Of a DNA stretch of 64,000 nucleotides, positions 7,195-64,000 are shown piece after piece (the first letter of the stretch is position 1; each line of letters begins with the position of its first letter). Below the pieces are notes generated by a model, which had not been told where the DNA came from, searched no databases, and saw only the letters and a program-made list of their open reading frames with translations. The translations under genes and the position numbers were made by a program. The stretch is taken from IMG/VR virus record IMGVR_UViG_3300010340_001122. One strand, written 5' to 3'. The DNA comes from a virus (Duplodnaviria; Caudoviricetes).

Positions 7195-7551
7195 ATGAAA
7201 TTTATTAAATTCATTAAAAGTCTATTTAAAGGTTTTACTGAAGAATCAACTATGCCAGTAATCAACACACCAGTAACAAAGACCAAAGTTGAAGAGCCAG
7301 TTGTAATAGTTGAGGAAACACCAACTTTTACTAACGAGCCAGTTGTAAAAGTTGAAACAGATACGCCAGTTATTGTTGAATCTGATAAAAAAGAGATAGT
7401 AACTGAGACTCCTAAGGTTGAGGAATCGAAAACTGCTAAGGAAATTAAATCTAAAGTTAGAAAACCTAACCCAGATGTAAATCAACAGTCTAAGCCTAAA
7501 CCAAAAAGAAGAAGACCTTCTAAGCCAAAACAACCCAAACAAGGTGAATAA
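7195..7551 (+). CDS. Low-complexity protein (E/P/V/T-rich, basic tail)
   Basis: 118-aa ORF followed by terminator. Confidence 0.65.
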   Translation: MKFIKFIKSLFKGFTEESTMPVINTPVTKTKVEEPVVIVEETPTFTNEPVVKVETDTPVIVESDKKEIVTETPKVEESKTAKEIKSKVRKPNPDVNQQSKPKPKRRRPSKPKQPKQGE

Positions 7552-7582
7552 AAAAAACCTCTGATTTATCAGAGGTTTTTTT
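7552..7582. terminator. Bidirectional intrinsic terminator
   Basis: aaaaaaacctctga-ttta-tcagaggttttttt between convergent genes. Confidence 0.85.
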
Positions 7583-7899
7583 TATTTTAAAAGTTTGATA
7601 TAAGATTTATAAGTTTTCCTATCCATAGTCATAATACAATATTTAGAATCTATTTCATTATAATAAGGGAAAAAGTAAAAACTATTATCTTGTTCATTAA
7701 AATTAAGTCCTAAAATCATTCTACCACCTTGTCTATATTTATCGCTATCTGATTTTAAAACAATAAAGTCATAATATATAATTTCTCTATGTAAAGACCA
7801 CCCATACTCTGATAATTTACACTCTAATATATGATCACCATCTTCATCTCTGAAGAGTAATCTATAGGATTTATTTTGTTTTAGAAGATTTTTCATCAT
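7582..7899 (-). CDS. Hypothetical protein
   Basis: 105-aa ORF; TATATTTG upstream. Confidence 0.65.
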   Translation of the reverse strand: MMKNLLKQNKSYRLLFRDEDGDHILECKLSEYGWSLHREIIYYDFIVLKSDSDKYRQGGRMILGLNFNEQDNSFYFFPYYNEIDSKYCIMTMDRKTYKSYIKLLK

Positions 7900-11261: not shown

Positions 11262-11291
11262 AAAAAAACCCACTCAAATGAGTGGGTTTTT
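11262..11291. terminator. Bidirectional intrinsic terminator
   Basis: aaaacccactc-aaat-gagtgggtttt, same core as 43146-43172. Confidence 0.85.
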
Positions 11292-17704: not shown

Positions 17705-19167
17705 TTAAAATCCGTTGAATATGTCTAAAATAACACTCAATCTTTTAGTTATTTCTGGCATTCCAAGTGGAGTAATAATTGAGTTAATAGGACTTATAAT
17801 TGTTTTGAAAAATTGTAAATCATAATCAACTTCAGGTGCGAATTCAATAGGATATGATCCTCTAATAAATGCAAATATTTCATTTATTTTTTTATTATTA
17901 CAGTGATAATACTTAATTTTTGTTCCGGATTTAATAAATTCATACTTTGATTGTAATTCTTTATTTTGATTTAAAAGAAAATTATAGTAAGCTGCTGATT
18001 TAACCGCAAAGTGAGCACCAGATACAAAACTTAATCTATCTTTATCTTCTAAAACCTTTGTTTCATAGTTAGAGCAAGATGATTGCATTGATATATCATC
18101 AATATCAGCTAATTCAAATTCTTTTCTTAAATTCTTAACCAATTTAAGTAAGTCTTTAATATTAAAATTATCTGGATGTTCAAATAAATATTTAACAATC
18201 TGTATAATTTTCTCTCTTGCAAAAAGTGGTGTTGATGATCTAACAAGTTCAACTCCTTTAGGGAAAATATATGTCAATCTATCGAAGGGAATACCATCTT
18301 CATAAACAATATTTTGTATATATTTCTTTTTAGAAAAATTCAGAATAGATTCAGAAATTCTCTCCAATTCAAAATCCTCTCGATTTTTAACCCCGAAACT
18401 CTCAGCATACTCTTCAAGACAGTTTTTAAAGTATCCACCAAATCTAAATCCATCAATTCCATGAATAAAATCTAATTCATTAAACCAATTCCATCTTATT
18501 ACATTATTTTTTAATAAATCTTGCAATTCAGGAGAATTAAATGATCTATCTTTAACAAAATAACCATCAATAATTAAATGATCTACTTTGTTATTTTTCA
18601 AAAAATCTTTTAATTCATCCGGTTTTTTAAAAATACCTAAACAGTTAATATTGTCGGTTTTGGTTTCTTGTCTATACTCTAATATTACAAATGTTGTATC
18701 TACTTTATCTATATTTTTTAAGAATAGATTTTGCCATTCACAATGTTGAATTGCAGGTTCAAATGATACAAATAATGAATCAGTATCTGCATAAATACTT
18801 ACTTCTTCTCCATTCTTTTTAATAATTGGAGTAACATTTTTCACACCTAATCTGGCATGTAATTCATAATCTATGTGCCAATGAGAATACCAGTATTTCT
18901 CATTTACTGCATGCATAGTTTTTGTTAAATCACGACCCTGTGCAGTAATTGTACCAGCAACGTGTTGGTTAAATAGTATGAAATATTGCGTCGCAAATGC
19001 ACCATACGAACCATTTAATATAAGTTTTAGTCAATACCCCCTCAAATAAATTGAGGGGGTCAAAAAAGAGCGAGCTGTAAGGCATTGTAGTAATCACTTT
19101 CCCTTTTCAACTCGCTGGCTTTATTTTTTAATGACTCAATTTTTTTGAGTTTATCTTCTTTAGTCAA
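17705..19167 (-). CDS. Family B DNA polymerase, C-terminal subunit (gp43B-like), interrupted by a 38-nt non-coding insert
   Basis: Segment 1 is 19167-19069 (TTG; MTKEDKLKKIESLKNKASELKRESDYYNALQLA). Segment 2 is 19030-17705 (LKLILNGSYG...ITAQGR...YADTDS...SKKKY...KGVELVRSSTP). Joined product is 474 aa; the ORF track start at 18916 omits motif B. Confidence 0.85.
19031..19068 (-). other. 38-nt coding gap with in-frame TGA and 10-bp hairpin (candidate translational bypass element)
   Basis: Minus strand: GCT[CTT TTT TGA ccccctcaa tttat ttgagggggt attga]CTA AAA CTT; hairpin at 19036-19060. Confidence 0.75.
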
Positions 19168-19206
19168 TTTTTTAATTATTTTTTAAATATATCCTTAAAG
19201 GAACAT

Positions 19207-20388
19207 ATGTTAATTTTATATATAATAAAATTAATTAGTTTTTATATGATAAAAGAAAAAAATGTTTTAGTCTCCGTAAATTCAAGAAACATATCACACT
19301 ATAAGTTATTGGGTTATGATATACATATTGGTGGGTTTTCAGATAAAAAACTATTAGAAGTAATTATTAAAGACATTCCAAAAAATTCAACGGTTAGAAT
19401 AACTGCTATTTGTGACTTGTGTAGTTGTGAAAAGTCTATTACACTAGCAAAATATTATAAAAATTTTGAAAGAGGTGGTTATAATTTTTATTCTTGTTTT
19501 GGTTGTAAAAATAAAAAGAAAGAAATGACTAATCTAAAATTGTTTGGTGTAAAGTCTTTTTCCGAAACTGATGTCTTTAAGGAAAAATATAACAAAACTT
19601 GTTTAGAAAAATATGGAGTTAAAAATCCAAATATGTTAAAAGATTTTAGAGAAAAAACTAAAAAAACTTGCTTGGAAAAGTATGGATTTACAAATCCATT
19701 AATGAGACCAGAAATTATAGATTCAAATAGGATATGGATGTCTTCTGATGAATTTAAAAATAAATCCAAATTAACGTTAATAAAAAACTGGGGATTTGAT
19801 TCATACTCAAAAACTGATGAATTTAAAAATAAAATTCAAGAGAATAAAGAAATGATTATTAGTAAAATAAAATCTTCGTTTTTAGAAAAATACGGAGTTG
19901 ATTCTATTTTTAAAACTAAAGATTGGAAAATTAACTTTATGAATAAAATAGATGAAATCCAAAAGAAGAAAAAGGATACTTGTTTAGAAAAATATGGATT
20001 TGAAAATGTTTCTCAAGTCTCTGAAATATATGACAGAATAATTAAAACTAAGATATATAATAATCAAATTATACCTGATTCATTATTATCAGATTGGAAA
20101 ATATATAAAAGAAAAGTTAGGAAAATAACAAACAAGAATAAAAAAACTCTTTATGAAAATTGGAACGGTAATGATTATTATGATGATGAAGTTATAAAGT
20201 CCTATCTTGCATACTCACACACACATAGGTTTTACCCTTGTATAGACCACAAGATTAGTGTTTTTTATGGATTTAATAATAACATAGATCCAGAAATAAT
20301 AGGAGATATTGATAATTTATGTATAACTAAAAGATTTTTGAACTCCATAAAAGGTAGTTTAATTGAAGAGGAGTTTCGAAAATTTTAA
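19207..20388 (+). mobile_element. Free-standing HNH homing endonuclease with (T)CLEKYG repeats
   Basis: CDLC...CFGC, several KTCLEKYG(V/F) repeats, C-terminal IDHKIS...NLCIT...NSIKG; likely start ATG 19246; inserted antisense between clamp and polB. Confidence 0.75.
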
Positions 20389-22073: not shown

Positions 22074-22786
22074 TCATCTAAAAGTTCATCTAGTCTTTGA
22101 CCTCTATTTGGCATTATATTAGGTGATGTTGCTAATACATATCCATCTGAAAATTCTAATACTTGTGAATTAATATTATTATTAACTTTTAAAAGCTTAT
22201 AAAGAATCAACTCCTCACTGAAGTCATATATTCTTTTATATGAAAAATAGTTTTCTGTGTTTTCCCTAATAAATTCTAAAGATTCTATAAAATAATCAGA
22301 TTTATCATGTTTCAATGAAACAATAGATCCTATTTTATTTTTTATACTACATATCTCATTTCCATTCTCATCGAATCCATAAAAATCCCCTATTATTTTT
22401 ATAACATCTTTAATGGTTTGTATGTAAAGAATGCAAGGAATTGCTGGTAATTGTGAAAAGTTATAAGTATATTTTACAAAATCAACATTATAGGATCTAT
22501 GTTCTTGGATATCTTCTATTTCTTTAAAATAATTTAAATTTTCTTGACTAATCGAGCATTTTATAACCTCATGTCCAAGTAGAGATGAAAAGAATTCTAT
22601 TTTAAATTCTTCTTTAAGAAATCGATGTACAAGTTTTTCAAATCTATCAATATTATTTTTTGATATAGAAAAAGAAAAACGATAATCGATTTTTCTATTA
22701 TATACCTCTTTTATTTCCAAATAATGCAAACCACCAGATATCTTCTTAGACCATTCCTCAATTTCTATTTTTGATAAAATTCTCAT
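22070..22786 (-). CDS. Hypothetical protein with RGQRLDELL tail
   Basis: 238-aa ORF, last gene of the NAD operon. Confidence 0.65.
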   Translation of the reverse strand: MRILSKIEIEEWSKKISGGLHYLEIKEVYNRKIDYRFSFSISKNNIDRFEKLVHRFLKEEFKIEFFSSLLGHEVIKCSISQENLNYFKEIEDIQEHRSYNVDFVKYTYNFSQLPAIPCILYIQTIKDVIKIIGDFYGFDENGNEICSIKNKIGSIVSLKHDKSDYFIESLEFIRENTENYFSYKRIYDFSEELILYKLLKVNNNINSQVLEFSDGYVLATSPNIMPNRGQRLDELLDD

Positions 22787-23469
22787 ACTAATTCCACAAC
22801 TTTAATAGGAACTTCCGCTCTTTCTCTAATTTCCTCAAATGTCCATTCTTTTAAAATTCGACCATTTTCAAAAATTTTTACTAAAATATCATCACTAAAC
22901 TCGTTACAATGTTCAACAGTTTCATATTCATCACTATTATTATATCTATCAATATGATGTAAAAGTTTTAATCTACCAGCTTTTGATTTTTTAAAAGACT
23001 GAACTCTCTCACCATATTCATTAATTTCAATTGGATTTTTCTGAACTTCTACTTCTTCACCATTGATAACAATTGATGAACATTTGATAGCAAATTTCTG
23101 AGTATCTCTATCAACTTTTTGTAAAAGAGCACCACCCATACCAAATGCAATATTCTCTACTGCGAATCCTTCTTCAACCATCATATCTAAAATATCAATA
23201 ATAGACTCATAATTAACGCCATCACCCTGAATTACTCTAACATGTGGATCAATAACTTTAAATCCTTTTTTATTAATTGTTCCTCCGAATTTTTCCCAAA
23301 GAATATGAAAGATTTGCTTTAATGTTTGAATTGGATCACCACTATCCGGACGAATTACAAGACGACCATCTCTATTTAGAATTTTATCTCTCAAAGTAGT
23401 GCCCCAATAATCTCTACAAGCACGGATAATATCAAATGAGTCTGATAGTAATAGAATATTAGGTTCCAT
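22783..23469 (-). pseudogene. nadV: Nicotinamide phosphoribosyltransferase, C-terminal half only
   Basis: SDSFD, VIRPDSGDP, VIQGDGV, FGMGGALLQKVDRDT, KKSKAGRL present; N-terminal half absent. Confidence 0.8.
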
Positions 23470-23470
23470 A

Positions 23471-24592
23471 TTATGAATTTATTTTGTCAAAGTAATTTTT
23501 GAATATCTCATGTGGCACTGATACAGATATTCTTGAGTATTGTGTATTTACTGTTCTGTTAAGTGAAAACTTAAGTAAAGGTACGGATGATATTCGATTA
23601 AATAAAAGAATATCAAAATTTATATTAATTATAGCGAATGGTCCGGTTGGAATCGATGGATATTCATCAAATAAGAATCCTCTATCTTTAAGATATTGAA
23701 TATTCTTCTTTATACTATCCTGTGTTTTTATTTTATAGTTCTCTAAAGCTGCATTACCATTATTTGTTGTAAGAAGTTTCGTTATTACTTGTTGTGGAAT
23801 TGTTGAAATAGAATTATACTTATATAAGGAACGAATTTTCATTGAATTATATAATTCTTGATTTTTTGTTGCAATATATCCAATTCTAAGTCCTGATAAT
23901 CCCATTGATTTAGAAAATGATGATATAACAATTACATTATCATAGAATAACTCATGAATTGGATTATCAATATCATTGAATAAATAATAATATGGTAAGT
24001 CTAGAATAACTGTAATATTATGTTCTTTTGAATGATCTAAAAACGCCTTTAAATCTTCAAAATTAGGTGACCATCCTGTAGGATTTGAAGGGTAACACAA
24101 CATTACAACTTCCGATTCTTTTTCAAATGGTAGGATGTTAAAGTAATTTGTAAATGGGTCACAAACTTTAAAATTTCTAATATTAAAATCATCAAATTCC
24201 TTAATTTTTTTATTATGAATTTTAAGAATTTTATTCCAAGAACCCCAATGATATTTAGGAACCCAAAAATTTTCTTCATCTAATGAATTTATAACCAAAT
24301 CAAGTGTTGCCATTCCACCAGGAACAGTCATTACATAATGATCCTTTAAATGAAATTTGTTTTTAATAACATCAATTAAAACCGAATCGCCATCATTACC
24401 ACCATATTGTTGAACAGATTTTTGATTATAGTCAAAATCTCTCATGAATGAATTTAAGTCGATCATATCGACATCCATAACACCTCGATGTAGTTTTAAA
24501 TATGTTTCACCAGTTGCCTTTTCTAACTGTGAAGTTCTTTCACCTATCTCTACGATTGATGAATATGTTACGGGTGAGTGATTTATTTTCAT
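23471..24592 (-). CDS. PLP-dependent class I/II aminotransferase
   Basis: PSNPTG, ILDLPY, SFSKSMGLSGLRIGY (PLP lysine), terminal RIS. Confidence 0.9.
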   Translation of the reverse strand: MKINHSPVTYSSIVEIGERTSQLEKATGETYLKLHRGVMDVDMIDLNSFMRDFDYNQKSVQQYGGNDGDSVLIDVIKNKFHLKDHYVMTVPGGMATLDLVINSLDEENFWVPKYHWGSWNKILKIHNKKIKEFDDFNIRNFKVCDPFTNYFNILPFEKESEVVMLCYPSNPTGWSPNFEDLKAFLDHSKEHNITVILDLPYYYLFNDIDNPIHELFYDNVIVISSFSKSMGLSGLRIGYIATKNQELYNSMKIRSLYKYNSISTIPQQVITKLLTTNNGNAALENYKIKTQDSIKKNIQYLKDRGFLFDEYPSIPTGPFAIININFDILLFNRISSVPLLKFSLNRTVNTQYSRISVSVPHEIFKNYFDKINS

Positions 24593-25515
24593 ATATTTTT
24601 TAAAAACATTTTTAATAGTGGTTTATGTTCATCAACGATTGGTCCAATTACATTATCATAAATATCAATCCAAGATTGTGATATTTCATGTATATCCCAC
24701 CATTTCAGTTCAGATACATCATCTGAGGGTTCGATAATACCACCGATATATTTGGTTTTGTAGAAATTACTAATAATTTTATCTTCCTCTCCACGATATC
24801 TCCAATCTGGAACTAGTGTGCTACCAATATATTTTAGTTCAGATATTTCTAAACCATTACCAGCATCTTGAGAAATTTTCCTTTTTGCAGTTGATTCAAA
24901 TGAATCATCGGTTGGATGAGCGAATCCGCCAATGAATCTCCAACCATTTTCATAAGGTTTTTTTGCTAAAAGAATCTTATCATCATCATTCATAATAGCG
25001 ACATCTACACAAGGATGTACTTTTGGATATTGATTATATGCATTATAAATAACACCTGCTCTAAAATCTGGTGAGTTTTTGACTGTTTCAGATACTATTT
25101 TTCTAACCTCTGTTCCTGATACAAATGTATATTGGTCTAATTCTCTACAATCGAATTGCCCTTTACCTCTTTTATAATATGGTATGAATGAATCTCTACC
25201 CCCATAAAGAACCACATCACCTATTGGATAAACCTCTCTGATTCTTCTATCTAATTCTGATGTCCATTTAACATCATCTCCAAAATCGGGAAGTGCAAGA
25301 ATAACTGAATCTGGATAGGATGCTTGAATCATCTTTTTCCTAGAATCAAAATCTAAAGGATTCTTTTTAGTACCAACTACTTTAGGTACTCCTAAAAATA
25401 TAATTGATTTTTTATGATTATTAACGACTTGATCGATGATATATCGATGAGCATCGTGTAGATCATGAACTTGGAATCTACCAACTACCGATCCTATTGA
25501 ATATTCTTTATCCAT
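24589..25515 (-). CDS. Bifunctional NMN adenylyltransferase / Nudix (NadM-Nudix, NatV-like)
   Basis: VGRFQ...HDAH, KNPLDF, SGTEVR; C-terminal Nudix fold with degenerate Nudix box. Confidence 0.9.
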   Translation of the reverse strand: MDKEYSIGSVVGRFQVHDLHDAHRYIIDQVVNNHKKSIIFLGVPKVVGTKKNPLDFDSRKKMIQASYPDSVILALPDFGDDVKWTSELDRRIREVYPIGDVVLYGGRDSFIPYYKRGKGQFDCRELDQYTFVSGTEVRKIVSETVKNSPDFRAGVIYNAYNQYPKVHPCVDVAIMNDDDKILLAKKPYENGWRFIGGFAHPTDDSFESTAKRKISQDAGNGLEISELKYIGSTLVPDWRYRGEEDKIISNFYKTKYIGGIIEPSDDVSELKWWDIHEISQSWIDIYDNVIGPIVDEHKPLLKMFLKNI

Positions 25516-26891: not shown

Positions 26892-27428
26892 ATGAGTGAT
26901 AAACCAACATTGGATAGAATAGAATTATTACATCCAGCAGTTAGACAAGAAGTTAAAGATATCTATTTAAATGAAATTGTACCTGCTTTAGCTGGAAAAG
27001 CAATATGCAGATTTGCATATACTTTAAGAACGTTTGCTGAGCAAGATGCACTTTATGCACAAGGTCGAACAAAATTATTTGACGCTAATGGAAAAAAATT
27101 AGGAGTTGTTACAAAAGCAAAAGGTGGTCAATCTATACACAATTTTGGATTGGCACTTGATATTGTCCTTTTAAAGGATACTAATGGTGATGGTACGTTT
27201 GAGTCTGCTTCTTGGGAAACAAATATAGATTTTGATAAAGATGGTAAAGCAGATTGGATGGAAATTGTAAATATTTTTAAAAAACATGGATGGGAATGGG
27301 GAGGAGATTGGAAATCATTTAAAGATCTTCCACACTTTGAAAAAACTTTTGGAAATACATGGAGAACATTATTACCAAAACATAATGCTAAACAATTTAT
27401 ACCTGGAACCACATATGTAAAGATCTAA
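26892..27428 (+). CDS. Endolysin, M15 L-alanyl-D-glutamate peptidase
   Basis: RTFAEQDALYAQGRT, SIHNFGLALD, WGGDWKSFKDLPHFE. Confidence 0.9.
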   Translation: MSDKPTLDRIELLHPAVRQEVKDIYLNEIVPALAGKAICRFAYTLRTFAEQDALYAQGRTKLFDANGKKLGVVTKAKGGQSIHNFGLALDIVLLKDTNGDGTFESASWETNIDFDKDGKADWMEIVNIFKKHGWEWGGDWKSFKDLPHFEKTFGNTWRTLLPKHNAKQFIPGTTYVKI

Positions 27429-27430
27429 AT

Positions 27431-27461
27431 AAAAAAACCACTCATTTTGAGTGGTTTTTTT
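27431..27461. terminator. Bidirectional intrinsic terminator
   Basis: aaaaaaaccactca-tt-ttgagtggtttttt. Confidence 0.85.
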
Positions 27462-28611
27462 ATTTTAAAATATTTACTACTTCTGGATACCAATGACATT
27501 TTGTATCATCTTTATCATCATAATTTATTTTATCCAAAACATATCTCATTGCATTTAATCTTCCTATTTTTTTATCATTAGAATTTATTATTACCCAAGG
27601 AGACATTCTTGTTGATGTTTTATTAAACATCTGATTTTTATATTTAGTTATTATATCCCATTTATCAACAACTTTTGCATCGTTTGGTGAAAATTTCCAA
27701 TATTTAAGAGGAGATTGTTTTCTTAATTCAAATCTTAATTGTTGTTTTTCTTTAGTTATAGAAAACCAAAATTTAATTAAAATTAATCCTTTTTTTATTA
27801 AAGATTCTTCCCAATTTCCAACATTTTCTATAAAATCCATATATTGATCCTCTGTACAATATCCCATAGCTGGCTCAACGACTCCTCTATTATACCAAGA
27901 TCTATCAAAGAAAACAATTTCTCCATTATTTGGTAGATGTTTTTCATATCTTCCAAACCAATTATTTTTCTCTTCTTCTGTTGGTACTCCAAGAGCAACA
28001 ACTCTGAAGTATTTAGGATTTAAATATTCAATAAATCTTTTAATAGTTGAACCTTTACCAGCTGAATCTCTTCCTTCAAAAACAATAGCAACTCTCTGAT
28101 TTGTTCTAATAACCCATTCTTGTAATTTCATCAATTCAACCTGAATATCATATTTCTCATCTTCATATTTTCTACGAGTTATTAATGAGTGTTCTCCTTC
28201 GACTTTATCAAAATGATCTTCTTCTTTAGAATCTTGAGATTCCTCTTCAAATCTATTTTCTAGAGAAGAATAATAATTTAAAAACTCTTCTTTAATTTTC
28301 TTTTTAGTATTTCTTTTTTTTAAATCTAAAATTTGATTGATTTTTCTTAAAAAAGACACAATATTGAATTGTTCTACAATATCCTTTCCTAAATCCGAGT
28401 TTAATTGTGATATAATTTGAGGTATATTAATATTTGTAAAATCTTTATATTCAATTTTATTAGTTTTAAGATTATATTCAATATTGTGTAATATTGAATA
28501 TTTATATTGATCTAAATTAGTAATGATATTTATTAATAATTTATTAAAACTACTATCACTCATTTTACTAATATTTAATTCTTCTTTTATATGTTTTATA
28601 TAGTGTAACAT
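27460..28611 (-). CDS. ppk2: Polyphosphate kinase 2 with about 140-aa N-terminal extension
   Basis: FEGRDSAGKG Walker A, FDRSWYNR, WKFSPND, PWVII. Confidence 0.92.
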   Translation of the reverse strand: MLHYIKHIKEELNISKMSDSSFNKLLINIITNLDQYKYSILHNIEYNLKTNKIEYKDFTNINIPQIISQLNSDLGKDIVEQFNIVSFLRKINQILDLKKRNTKKKIKEEFLNYYSSLENRFEEESQDSKEEDHFDKVEGEHSLITRRKYEDEKYDIQVELMKLQEWVIRTNQRVAIVFEGRDSAGKGSTIKRFIEYLNPKYFRVVALGVPTEEEKNNWFGRYEKHLPNNGEIVFFDRSWYNRGVVEPAMGYCTEDQYMDFIENVGNWEESLIKKGLILIKFWFSITKEKQQLRFELRKQSPLKYWKFSPNDAKVVDKWDIITKYKNQMFNKTSTRMSPWVIINSNDKKIGRLNAMRYVLDKINYDDKDDTKCHWYPEVVNILK

Positions 28612-29527: not shown

Positions 29528-29569
29528 TTACTTAATACTTTTCTTATATATTAAAACTTTTAAGTGCAT

Positions 29570-29598
29570 AAAAAACCCAGATATAATCTGGGTTTTTT
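29570..29598 (-). terminator. Intrinsic terminator
   Basis: aaaaaacccagat-ata-atctgggtttttt downstream of the lipoprotein gene. Confidence 0.8.
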
Positions 29599-29618
29599 AT
29601 TTTACATCAAATTTTAAA

Positions 29619-43142: not shown

Positions 43143-43145
43143 ATA

Positions 43146-43172
43146 AAACCCACTCAAATGAGTGGGTTTTTT
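43146..43172. terminator. Bidirectional intrinsic terminator
   Basis: aaaacccactc-aaat-gagtgggtttttt. Confidence 0.85.
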
Positions 43173-46107: not shown

Positions 46108-46122
46108 ATACTATATATAAAT

Positions 46123-46159
46123 AAAAAAAACGAGATAGATTAACTATCTCGTTTTTTTT
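46123..46159 (-). terminator. Intrinsic terminator
   Basis: aaaaaaaacgagatag-attaa-ctatctcgtttttttt. Confidence 0.85.
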
Positions 46160-46171
46160 ATATTTTTTTTA

Positions 46172-53039: not shown

Positions 53040-53072
53040 AAAAAACCCATTTGATAAATCAAATGGGTTTTT
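53040..53072 (-). terminator. Intrinsic terminator
   Basis: aaaaacccatttga-taaa-tcaaatgggttttt. Confidence 0.8.
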
Positions 53073-62352: not shown

Positions 62353-62402
62353 ATTAAACAAAGATAGGTGTATTTAATATATATGTAAAAAGGTATGTTA
62401 TT

Positions 62403-64000
62403 ATGGATTTAGATATATTTAGAAAAAACGATCCTTCTGGTAAATTAAATAAGGAATCTTACCTTTTCAAAAATCATACTGAAGAGTATAATTATATTAT
62501 TGATTATTGTAGGAAAAATGAAATATTTGATATTTCTTTCAAGGAAAAAGTTTATCTGTGTCTAAATAATATATCTAAAGTGCCTATCTGTAAAAATCCA
62601 AATTGCAATAAAAAAGTAAATTTTATAAATTCGACTTTGGGTTTCAGAGAATATTGTTCTAATAAATGTATATCATCTGATCCAGATATCAAAAAAATTA
62701 AAGAGATGAAATCTTTAGAAAAGTTTGGAACAAAAACTCCAGCTGAATCGAAATTAATAAAAGACAAAATAATTCAAACTAACCAATTAAAATATGGAGG
62801 TAATTCCCCTATGTCTTCGGAAAAGATTCAAGAAAAATCAAAAGAAACATTAATAGAGAATTGGGGAGTTGATAATCCTGCTAAATCAAGTAAAATTTTA
62901 GATAGAAGAATTGAGTCTTTCAAAAAAAGCAATTATAAAGAATCATATAGAAAAACTTCTATTGAAAAATATGGTGTTGATCATCCGTGGATGAATGAGG
63001 AAGTTCATAAAAAAACGATAGATTTCTTCTATAAGAGTTATAAGGAAAGAATTGAAAGTAAGATAAATCATGACCAATTTTTTTTTAAAGGATTTAAAAA
63101 AGATCTTTCAACCAATTTACAATTTCATTGCAATGAGTGTGGTGAAGATTTTGATATTTTAACCTGGCAATTTTATTACAGAAACAATTCAGGTAGAAGT
63201 ATCTGTACAAATTGTTTTCCAATTTCAGAAAATGCTTCTATTTCGCAATTAGAAGTTTTAAGATTTATTGAATCAAATTATAATGGTGAAATCATTTCAG
63301 ATTGTAAAGGTATTATAAACCCTTATGAAATAGATATTTATTTACCTGAACTTAAATTAGGATTTGAGTTTAATGGTGTTTGGTGGCATTCCGAGAAATT
63401 TAAAGGTGATAGTTATCATCAGAAAAAACATAAATTTGCGGAAGATAATAATATAAATTTATTTTCGATTTGGGAAGATGATTGGAATAGTAAAAGAGAA
63501 ATCTGTCAATCATTTATACTTAATAAACTAGGTAAAACTCAAAATAAAATCTGGGCTAGAAAATGCCAAATCGAAAATGTTTCTTATAATGATTCAAGAG
63601 ATTTTTTAATAAAAAATCACCTTCAGGGAGATTGTAAATCTTCGATTAGAATTGGTTTATATTTCAATAATGATTTAGTAAGTCTAATGACATTTTCTAA
63701 ATTAAGATTACCATTACAAAGACTAAAATCAAATCGTAAAGAAAATTACTATGAATTGACTAGATTTTGTAATAAAATAAATACTAATGTTGTTGGAGGA
63801 GCATCAAAAATATTGAAATATTTTATTCAAAATCATTCACCTATATCAATAGAAACTTATTCTGATAATTCAATTTCAAATGGTGGTCTTTATCAAACTT
63901 TAGAATTTACTTATCAACATACTTCAAAACCAGGATATTGGTATGTGATAGATGGTATAAGAAGTCATAGATTTAATTGGAGAAAACAAAAACTCCTTAA
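62403..64000 (+). mobile_element. Free-standing putative homing endonuclease (Zn fingers, KYG repeats, PD-(D/E)XK-like domain), runs off the window end
   Basis: Hand-translated from ATG 62403: CKNPNC...YCSNKC, KFG/KYG/NWG repeats, YEIDIYLPELKLGFEFNGVWWH, IWEDDW, YELTRFC. Confidence 0.75.

Follow-up and report, generated by a model that had tools for sequence, protein, structure and literature searches.

The interrupted polymerase gene

The stretch of DNA analyzed here, hereafter the window, comprises 64,000 nucleotides (nt) of the IMG/VR virus record IMGVR_UViG_3300010340_001122 and has a GC content of 27%. Its minus strand carries the gene for the C-subunit of a family B DNA polymerase (polB), in which an untranslated gap of 38 nt is found inside one open reading frame (ORF). 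These 38 nt are likely to be a cassette for translational bypass, similar to that of T4 gene 60 without being homologous to it, in the sole polB C-subunit gene of the phage. Bypass had been proposed in an earlier reading of the window, referred to as the original prediction, and the comparative results support this interpretation, with the mechanism itself deduced from sequence. The features of the locus, including a homing-endonuclease-like gene next to polB, are listed in Table 1.

Table 1. Positions of the features of the polB C-subunit locus in the window.
Feature	Position	Strand	Description
5' coding segment, polB C-subunit	19066..19167	-	TTG start (19167-19165) to candidate take-off codon CTT (19068-19066), 34 codons
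6-nt spacer	19060..19065	-	TTT (19065-19063) and stop TGA (19062-19060) in the incoming frame
Hairpin, 10 bp	19036..19060	-	arms 19060-19051 and 19045-19036, loop 19050-19046 (5 nt)
A/U-rich 3' spacer, 5 nt	19031..19035	-	contains TGA 19033-19031
Candidate landing codon CTA	19028..19030	-	synonym of the take-off codon CTT
3' coding segment, polB C-subunit	17705..19027	-	AAA 19027-19025 to stop 17707-17705, 440 codons
Homing-endonuclease-like gene	19207..20388	+	393 residues, free-standing, divergent from polB

The frame opened by TTG translates as LTKEDKLKKIESLKNKASELKRESDYYNALQLALF followed by the stop, and its 34 sense codons end in ...YYNALQLAL. This TTG is aligned with the ATG or GTG start of uninterrupted homologues, and an in-frame stop closes the frame just upstream of it. 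In the landing frame, the TGA of the 3' spacer stands immediately before CTA, after which the frame stays open up to the end of the gene. The first in-frame ATG, GTG, or TTG of this downstream frame is the ATG at 18916, 38 codons past CTA. The description given in the original prediction, including the TGA before CTA and the 38 codons devoid of a start codon, is accurate throughout. Deletion of the 38 nt gives QLALKLILNGSYG, which is identical to uninterrupted relatives, and restores the conserved protein. The 3' segment opens exactly at motif B (KLILNGSYG), also carries motif C (YADTDS), and matches Pfam DNA_pol_B with 6e-14 and a DNA polymerase PHROG with 1e-42.

The hairpin pairs perfectly; its 5' arm contains five C and its 3' arm five G. 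Its free energy is -19 kcal/mol (z-score -4.25), and none of 200 shuffled sequences folded as well. It is the most G+C-rich perfect hairpin of the window, in which the motif occurs once. Long ORFs in the window end in TAA, TGA, and TAG in 34, 8, and 3 cases, respectively, and because TGA is among these ends it is a genuine stop in this genome. An alternative genetic code is ruled out, as all three stops end long ORFs and the gap lengths of the relatives described below span all frames. Core genes of T4-like type, namely those of a UvsW-like helicase, a RecA/UvsX-like protein, and a T4-type terminase, are also contained in the window, while the polB N-subunit was not found there by tblastn.

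Relatives and occurrence of the gap

IMG/VR was searched by a protein-guided scan and three DNA-pattern scans. These yielded 30 viral contigs with a homologous gap, 9 further contigs with gaps at the Tyr or Gly sites described below, and about as many contigs without a gap. An unbiased protein-guided scan of metagenome contigs gave 80 loci, 79 of them informative, among which 46 were gap-less and 33 (about 42%) had a gap, including one locus with two gaps (L096). Pooled over IMG/VR and metagenomes, 41 distinct single-gap alleles and one double-gap allele were obtained, the gap being located at one of five codons within motif B. Among uncultured huge phages of fresh water and wastewater, gap-bearing polB accounts for about 4 in 10 alleles. 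As the original prediction had anticipated, uninterrupted QLALK alleles coexist at the same site with alleles that carry a covarying hairpin.

The records nearest to the window are uncultured huge phages of 634-735 kb, and the closest uninterrupted homologues are 66-68% identical (tblastn) and found in records of 634-642 kb. At loci L001 and L002, the C-subunit is a free-standing uninterrupted cistron of 474-476 codons, whose ATG is aligned with the TTG of the window and which reads ...YYNA(L/M)QLALKLVLNGSYG without a break. A split polymerase is hence the natural state in this clade; what sets the copy of the window apart is the 38-nt insertion. Near-identical hairpins in gaps of 39 nt are found in the nearest relatives of the window (L020, L083, L087, and L102), and in three of them TAA replaces TGA; the frame class thus changes harmlessly. 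A relative of 483 kb (G001), which is 98% complete, has a gap-bearing C-subunit gene as its sole one, with no second intact copy of the kind that the original prediction had reckoned with as a counter-indication. Its N-subunit gene (exonuclease and motif A, 515-codon frame) is located 96 kb away. The N-subunit (L034, at G001:C1:171561-174962) has a charged, helix-like tail at its end, and the C-subunit is Lys/Glu-rich and helix-like at its start (window 19066-19167). By analogy with other endonuclease-split phage enzymes, the two may serve as docking tails.

The phage is present in activated-sludge, wastewater, and freshwater runs from 13 studies. A contig of 12.5 kb from another study (X2) spans the insert with 1 difference and no gap in the alignment, and a contig from yet another study (X4) covers 18700-19216 with 0 differences. 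Assembly error is ruled out by these independent contigs and by dozens of diverged variants that carry the insert, which is hence real, a result in support of the original prediction.

Shared design of the gaps

Gap lengths range from 37 to 48 nt and are split 13/13/15 over the three frame classes (41 alleles). Given this even spread, no form of decoding, frameshifting included, can carry translation through the gap. In 34 of the 41 alleles, the C-run begins exactly 6 nt after a codon boundary, a spacing seen at all five codons (Ala, Leu, Val, Gly, and Tyr), and the 6-nt spacer contains a stop in 30 of 41, for which TGA, TAA, and TAG are all used. In 27 of these, the first in-frame stop directly adjoins the hairpin, and in 3 it comes immediately after the take-off codon. 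In the remaining alleles, a stop is met inside the hairpin or past it. The Phe codon before the stop, which the original prediction had pointed out as a weakness, is present; it is however a family feature rather than a weakness, since about 6 nt always separate take-off and hairpin.

All alleles carry a hairpin, 8-12 bp in length. The four basal stem pairs are C:G in 40 of 40 contexts, with C invariably on the 5' side of the sense strand, and 4-6 pair types are seen at the inner positions. RNAalifold predicted 11 pairs on 38 variants, 8 of them with compensatory changes, and the loops are frequently UUCG or GNRA tetraloops. The covarying stem and the C-run that is constantly 5' on the sense strand point to action at the RNA level. 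In related alleles, the landing codon is usually separated from the hairpin by 5-8 nt, and a G-run lies 5-8 nt before that codon.

At the Ala, Leu, Val, and Gly sites, 26 of 27 alleles have a landing codon for the same amino acid as the take-off codon, and its identity follows the site. CTT to CTA (15 alleles) and CTG to CTA (1) occur at the Leu site, GCN to GCN (5) and one exception (GCT to TCT) at the Ala site, GTT to GTA (3) at the Val site, and GGT to GGT (2) at the Gly site. The hop of a single tRNA-Leu from CTT to CTA, as originally predicted, would fit 15 of the 16 distinct Leu-site alleles. The take-off codons are located within QLALKLVLNGSYG, with NNT at take-off and NNA at landing as the usual pattern. 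This direction would be expected of a tRNA with U at the wobble position that gives up a weak pair for a strong one.

Tyr-site gaps were found at loci L049, L050, L056, L060, L064, L082, L086, L092-L096, L101, L103, L105, and L114, and further at L116, L126, L136, L138, L139, and L149. They fall between NGSY and GAF. At L049, L101, and L114 (Tyr site) and at L156 (Val site), the flanks lengthen the hairpin to 18-19 bp, so that the take-off codon is included. The double-gap locus L096 (metagenome contig ERZ724522 NODE-30, 2501-2700 region) has a gap of 41 nt at the Leu site and one of 37 nt at the Tyr site, eight codons apart, and would require two successive hops.

A covariance model built on 38 variants found exactly one copy per gap-bearing genome. 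With this model, neither the window nor any of five large records yielded an additional copy at E<=0.3, and a GC-island scan gave no similar elements. With a single copy per gap-bearing genome, the element is a polB-specific cassette and not a dispersed repeat. A dispersed repeat or GC-cluster family is ruled out by this copy number and by the uniqueness of the motif in the window. Group I or II introns, inteins, and self-cleaving ribozymes are likewise ruled out, given the length of 38 nt, the stops inside, the relatives in all frames, and the absence of any Rfam match in the insert region. To our knowledge, 38 nt is far too short for any known intron. An intrinsic terminator is excluded as well, as the hairpin has no trailing T-run and the terminator-like hairpins of the window are intergenic and composed of A-run, stem, and T-run. 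Intergenic A-run/T-run hairpins resembling bidirectional terminators lie at 7547-7586, 11264-11291, 27427-27465, 29568-29600, 43145-43170, 46121-46161, and 53041-53072, and those at 11264 and 43145 have nearly the same stem.

Selection on the gene

All invariant columns of an alignment of 18 sequences are kept in the window, motif C included. Purifying selection was found on both coding segments, as would be expected under the original prediction. Downstream of the gap, the pairwise ratio of non-synonymous to synonymous substitution rates (dN/dS) among gap alleles is 0.05-0.18, and in the upstream 32 codons of these alleles the non-synonymous proportion (pN) is 0.05-0.20 versus a synonymous proportion (pS) of 0.4-1.0. 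L047 and L048 share an identical insert and differ by 44 synonymous and 5 non-synonymous codons.

Most full-length gap alleles retain an intact downstream frame of about 440 codons (11 of 28 scored IMG/VR loci). In several relatives, this frame stops early at a split intein or mini-intein or by an unexplained shortening. In L008:2986-4907 (also L009, L010, L014, L025, and L026), a split intein divides the polB C-subunit once more, as indicated by Pfam Intein_splicing at the end of one ORF and at the start of the next, 30 nt apart. A contiguous mini-intein is found in the C-subunit at L012:2884-4824. For one polymerase, the intein-split relatives would need subunit assembly, a hop, and protein trans-splicing.

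The adjacent endonuclease-like gene

The start of the divergent gene lies about 40 nt from the start of polB. Its product of 393 residues matches Pfam DUF7487 with 1.4e-22 (DUF7487 repeats) and two PHROGs annotated as homing endonuclease with 4e-14 and 2e-13, and its relatives in phage collections are likewise annotated as homing endonuclease. An HNH-like motif was recognized by eye at the C-terminus, and the residues D-H-K...N...N are invariant in 9 homologues. Pfam gives DUF7487 alone and no HNH domain for this protein, a profile search against the PDB was empty, and the single-sequence fold of the C-terminus was unusable with a predicted local distance difference test (pLDDT) of 40. An IS200/IS605-type end or TnpB as an explanation of this ORF was dropped in view of the DUF7487 and homing-endonuclease PHROG matches. 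A second DUF7487 homing-endonuclease-like paralogue is found at 62358-63998 (+), where it runs off the window end, and shares 31% identity over 124 residues with the polB-adjacent one.

Where enough flanking sequence is available, homologues of this gene or their decayed remnants stand beside polB in 27 of 39 gap alleles and in 0 of 37 gap-less ones (Fisher p = 1.5e-11). The other 12 gap alleles have lost the gene. On a gene tree of 36 alleles, the gap is scattered, with well-supported branches forcing at least 5 changes and parsimony giving 10. The nuclease gene is thus located beside gap alleles, absent from gap-less ones, and patchy on the tree, as in a homing cassette. We infer that the insert and the adjacent gene, with its predicted endonuclease activity, are two halves of one mobile cassette. 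The insert is located in a motif-B coding stretch of about 30 bp, which is most likely the recognition target of the endonuclease. It would thereby confer immunity on its carrier, whereas gap-less alleles would be cut and converted.

Proposed bypass mechanism

Ribosomes would start at TTG and make 34 residues. With CTT in the P site, the very stable C:G-clamped hairpin starts 6 nt downstream, roughly at the mRNA entrance, and would hinder translocation, while ribosomes that get through would immediately terminate at TGA as a fail-safe. The peptidyl-tRNA-Leu would release CTT, the ribosome would cross the hairpin and the A/U-rich spacer, and the same tRNA would re-pair with CTA, so that decoding resumes at AAA. 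The predicted product is a continuous ...YYNALQLALKLILNGSYG... chain with motif B intact. The junction peptide predicted for the exact hop is ESDYYNALQLALK, and take-off one codon later would give ESDYYNALQLALFK.

Several observations weigh against this reading. The stop is usually the second codon after take-off, unlike in gene 60, where it is the first, and the TTT between take-off and stop makes up 4.4% of window codons, too many for it to count as slow or 'hungry'. The position of the hairpin is downstream of the A site and not within it, and the take-off and landing codons of the window, CTT and CTA, are not identical. At the Tyr site, landing codons are only loosely Tyr-like (TAC in 2, TAA or TAG in 3, AAC in 5, AAA in 3, and AGC in 1), and strict re-pairing is therefore not universal. 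No tRNA-Leu or tRNA-Ala gene was found in the window, and the 483-kb relative encodes Met, Gln, and Cys tRNAs only; a phage-encoded tRNA-Leu or tRNA-Ala serving the hop is rejected on this basis. A core resembling the Shine-Dalgarno (SD) sequence was found upstream of just 1 of 55 long-ORF starts in the window. As SD sequences are not used by the phage genes, SD aid to landing as in gene 60 is doubtful, and the helper role that the original prediction had given to the G-run before CTA is not supported. The Lys-rich N-terminal peptide of 34 residues has no clear gap-specific conservation, as gap and gap-less alleles are equal in this respect. Part of the signal of purifying selection may predate the arrival of the insert, since the insert is mobile. 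Among the sequencing runs listed for the stretch none was an RNA run, and the one metatranscriptome checked had no coverage of it. Leaders of window genes are A/T-rich, often with TATATA-like motifs. Such leaders and the SD-poor starts fit an SD-independent host, as in Bacteroidota.

With somewhat less assurance than for the bypass cassette itself, we favor the view that these gaps constitute a second, independently evolved phage family of efficient ribosome hopping, which would have its own rules and act as the immunity half of a homing-endonuclease cassette. As part of this broader view, the rules of the family would be a C:G-clamped hairpin that starts exactly 6 nt after take-off, a hop from NNU to NNA, no use of SD sequences, five take-off codons, and the possibility of double hops.

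Alternative explanations

Instead of being hopped over, the gap might be excised from the mRNA, either as a micro-intron or by hairpin-guided cleavage and religation, and the mended message translated normally. We regard this as unlikely. The frame independence, the conserved hairpin, and the exact restoration of the protein would be equally expected, the loose landing codons of the Tyr site are easier to accommodate when no tRNA has to re-pair, and in some alleles the flanks form a longer stem that joins the two junctions. However, excision needs neither the spacer stop (30/41), nor the codon-phased spacing of 6 nt (34/41), nor a synonymous 3' codon that tracks the site (26/27). Cutting at a set distance from the hairpin is disfavored too, because the 3' junction lies anywhere from 8 to 17 nt beyond it. 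We know of no bacterial or phage mechanism that splices 37-48 nt, and the lack of an Rfam match in the region also speaks against this explanation.

It is very unlikely that the insert is a mere scar of nuclease immunity that kills or truncates the gene, with the polymerase supplied by the host, a co-infecting phage, or another gene. A stop placed in an essential motif, the weak TTG start codon of the window, and the tight linkage to a selfish endonuclease gene would all be in keeping with a scar. Dead genes would, on the other hand, not be expected to retain ORFs of about 440 codons with all catalytic motifs in AT-rich genomes, and the low dN/dS of 0.05-0.18 also holds between alleles with one common insert. 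The gap is moreover found in about 42% of sampled alleles, its ordered design is maintained over 41 variants, and a genome of 98% completeness is without a second C-subunit.

Termination at TGA followed by a restart downstream, with a peptide of 35 residues and a fragment of 440 residues assembling as a third polymerase piece, is highly improbable. This polymerase does tolerate splitting, as seen from its separate N and C genes and from the split intein of some relatives, and a G-run stands 6 nt before CTA. A restart would however have to be made in a phage that lacks SD-led initiation, with no in-frame ATG, GTG, or TTG for 38 codons and at resume codons (CTA, GCN, GTA, GGT, and TAC-like) that are not start codons, and the break point shifts over ten codons inside one motif B helix. 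Decoding of the gap by frameshifting or stop readthrough can practically be dismissed: CTT TTT TGA C resembles a shift-prone site and is followed by a hairpin, but a -1 shift meets the TGA directly before CTA, the two +1 shifts that the original prediction had listed are contradicted by insert lengths spread evenly over the three frame classes and by varying stops, and readthrough would put 12-16 unconserved residues into the helix that binds deoxynucleoside triphosphates.

Other features of the window

At 22783-25515 (-), a NAPRTase-family fragment of 228 residues, about half the usual length, adjoins genes for a class I/II aminotransferase and a NUDIX-domain protein. This group may be a remodelled NAD-salvage cluster.

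Significance

For more than 30 years, T4 gene 60, together with its topoisomerase-gene homologues, has been the sole basis for long-range bypassing among phages and bacteria. If the bypass reading is true, hopping would be a recurrent answer to invasion by homing endonucleases, as it would have arisen in an unrelated family and in another essential gene. The more than 40 natural variants, with five take-off sites and a different hairpin geometry, would provide a natural mutational series on take-off and landing, including hosts in which Shine-Dalgarno pairing is not used. As regards annotation, gene callers applied to many huge-phage genomes will describe such polymerases as broken or truncated. 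If the gap were instead removed from the RNA, it would represent an entirely new kind of processing.

Comparison with known systems

T4 gene 60 has a bypass gap of 50 nt that is accompanied by the mobA homing endonuclease, and homologues are known from topoisomerase genes of Myoviridae (bioRxiv 10.1101/2022.08.31.505936). The same survey, the latest one, finds the gene 60 cassette in topoisomerase genes only and calls it unique (bioRxiv 10.1101/2022.08.31.505936). The pattern at polB matches, point by point, that described for the gap of T4 gene 60 and its mobA (bioRxiv 10.1101/2022.08.31.505936; PMC2988022).

In both systems, a replication gene that is essential and already split has a short non-coding gap within a highly conserved catalytic motif, and the insert protects a nuclease target in an invariant motif, as is predicted for polB. 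Take-off occurs early in the downstream cistron, close to its N-terminus (codon 34 here and codon 46 in T4), a stop follows soon after, and a stable stem-loop, often with a UUCG tetraloop, is present. Synonymous take-off and landing codons, an A/U-rich 3' part, and a one-codon shift of take-off between clades are also shared. A free-standing endonuclease gene is adjacent in both, decayed or lost in some lineages, and the element is scattered on the tree of the host gene.

The two systems differ in that they have no sequence homology and reside in polB and a topoisomerase gene (Toprim motif), respectively. The gaps described here are 37-48 nt long rather than 50 nt, and their hairpin begins 6 nt past the take-off codon, whereas the T4 hairpin includes that codon. 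Two codons after take-off is the usual place of the stop, and five take-off positions and one double-gap allele were found. T4 has a mini-SD, whereas landing assisted by SD is unlikely in a phage whose genes are not SD-led. The endonuclease is of the DUF7487 type and transcribed divergently, and the bypass in polB is a prediction from sequence. In full-text literature, no report of bypass in a DNA polymerase or in huge phages was found.

Mitochondrial 'byp' elements of the yeast Magnusiomyces capitatus, reportedly described by Lang et al. in 2014 and also taken up in bioRxiv 10.1101/2022.08.31.505936, resemble the polB gaps in being tens of nt long with a hairpin and in their matched or near-matched codons with tolerated deviations. 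They also have no SD, an A/U-rich 3' part, a mobile origin, and possibly several gaps per gene. In contrast to the dispersed, multi-copy byps of many genes, the element described here occurs once per genome, only in motif B of polB, and moves together with a homing endonuclease.

In Aeromonas phages 25 and 44RR, the polymerase is split into gp43A and gp43B, with an intercistronic spacer, a seg-type endonuclease, and a group I intron (Petrov et al. 2010 via PMC2988022). As in the huge phages, a family B phage polymerase made of N and C subunits is thus colonized by insertions associated with homing endonucleases. The interruptions in Aeromonas phages are however a cistron boundary and a self-splicing intron, whereas the subunit genes considered here are about 96 kb apart (483-kb relative) and the interruption is one of 38 nt.

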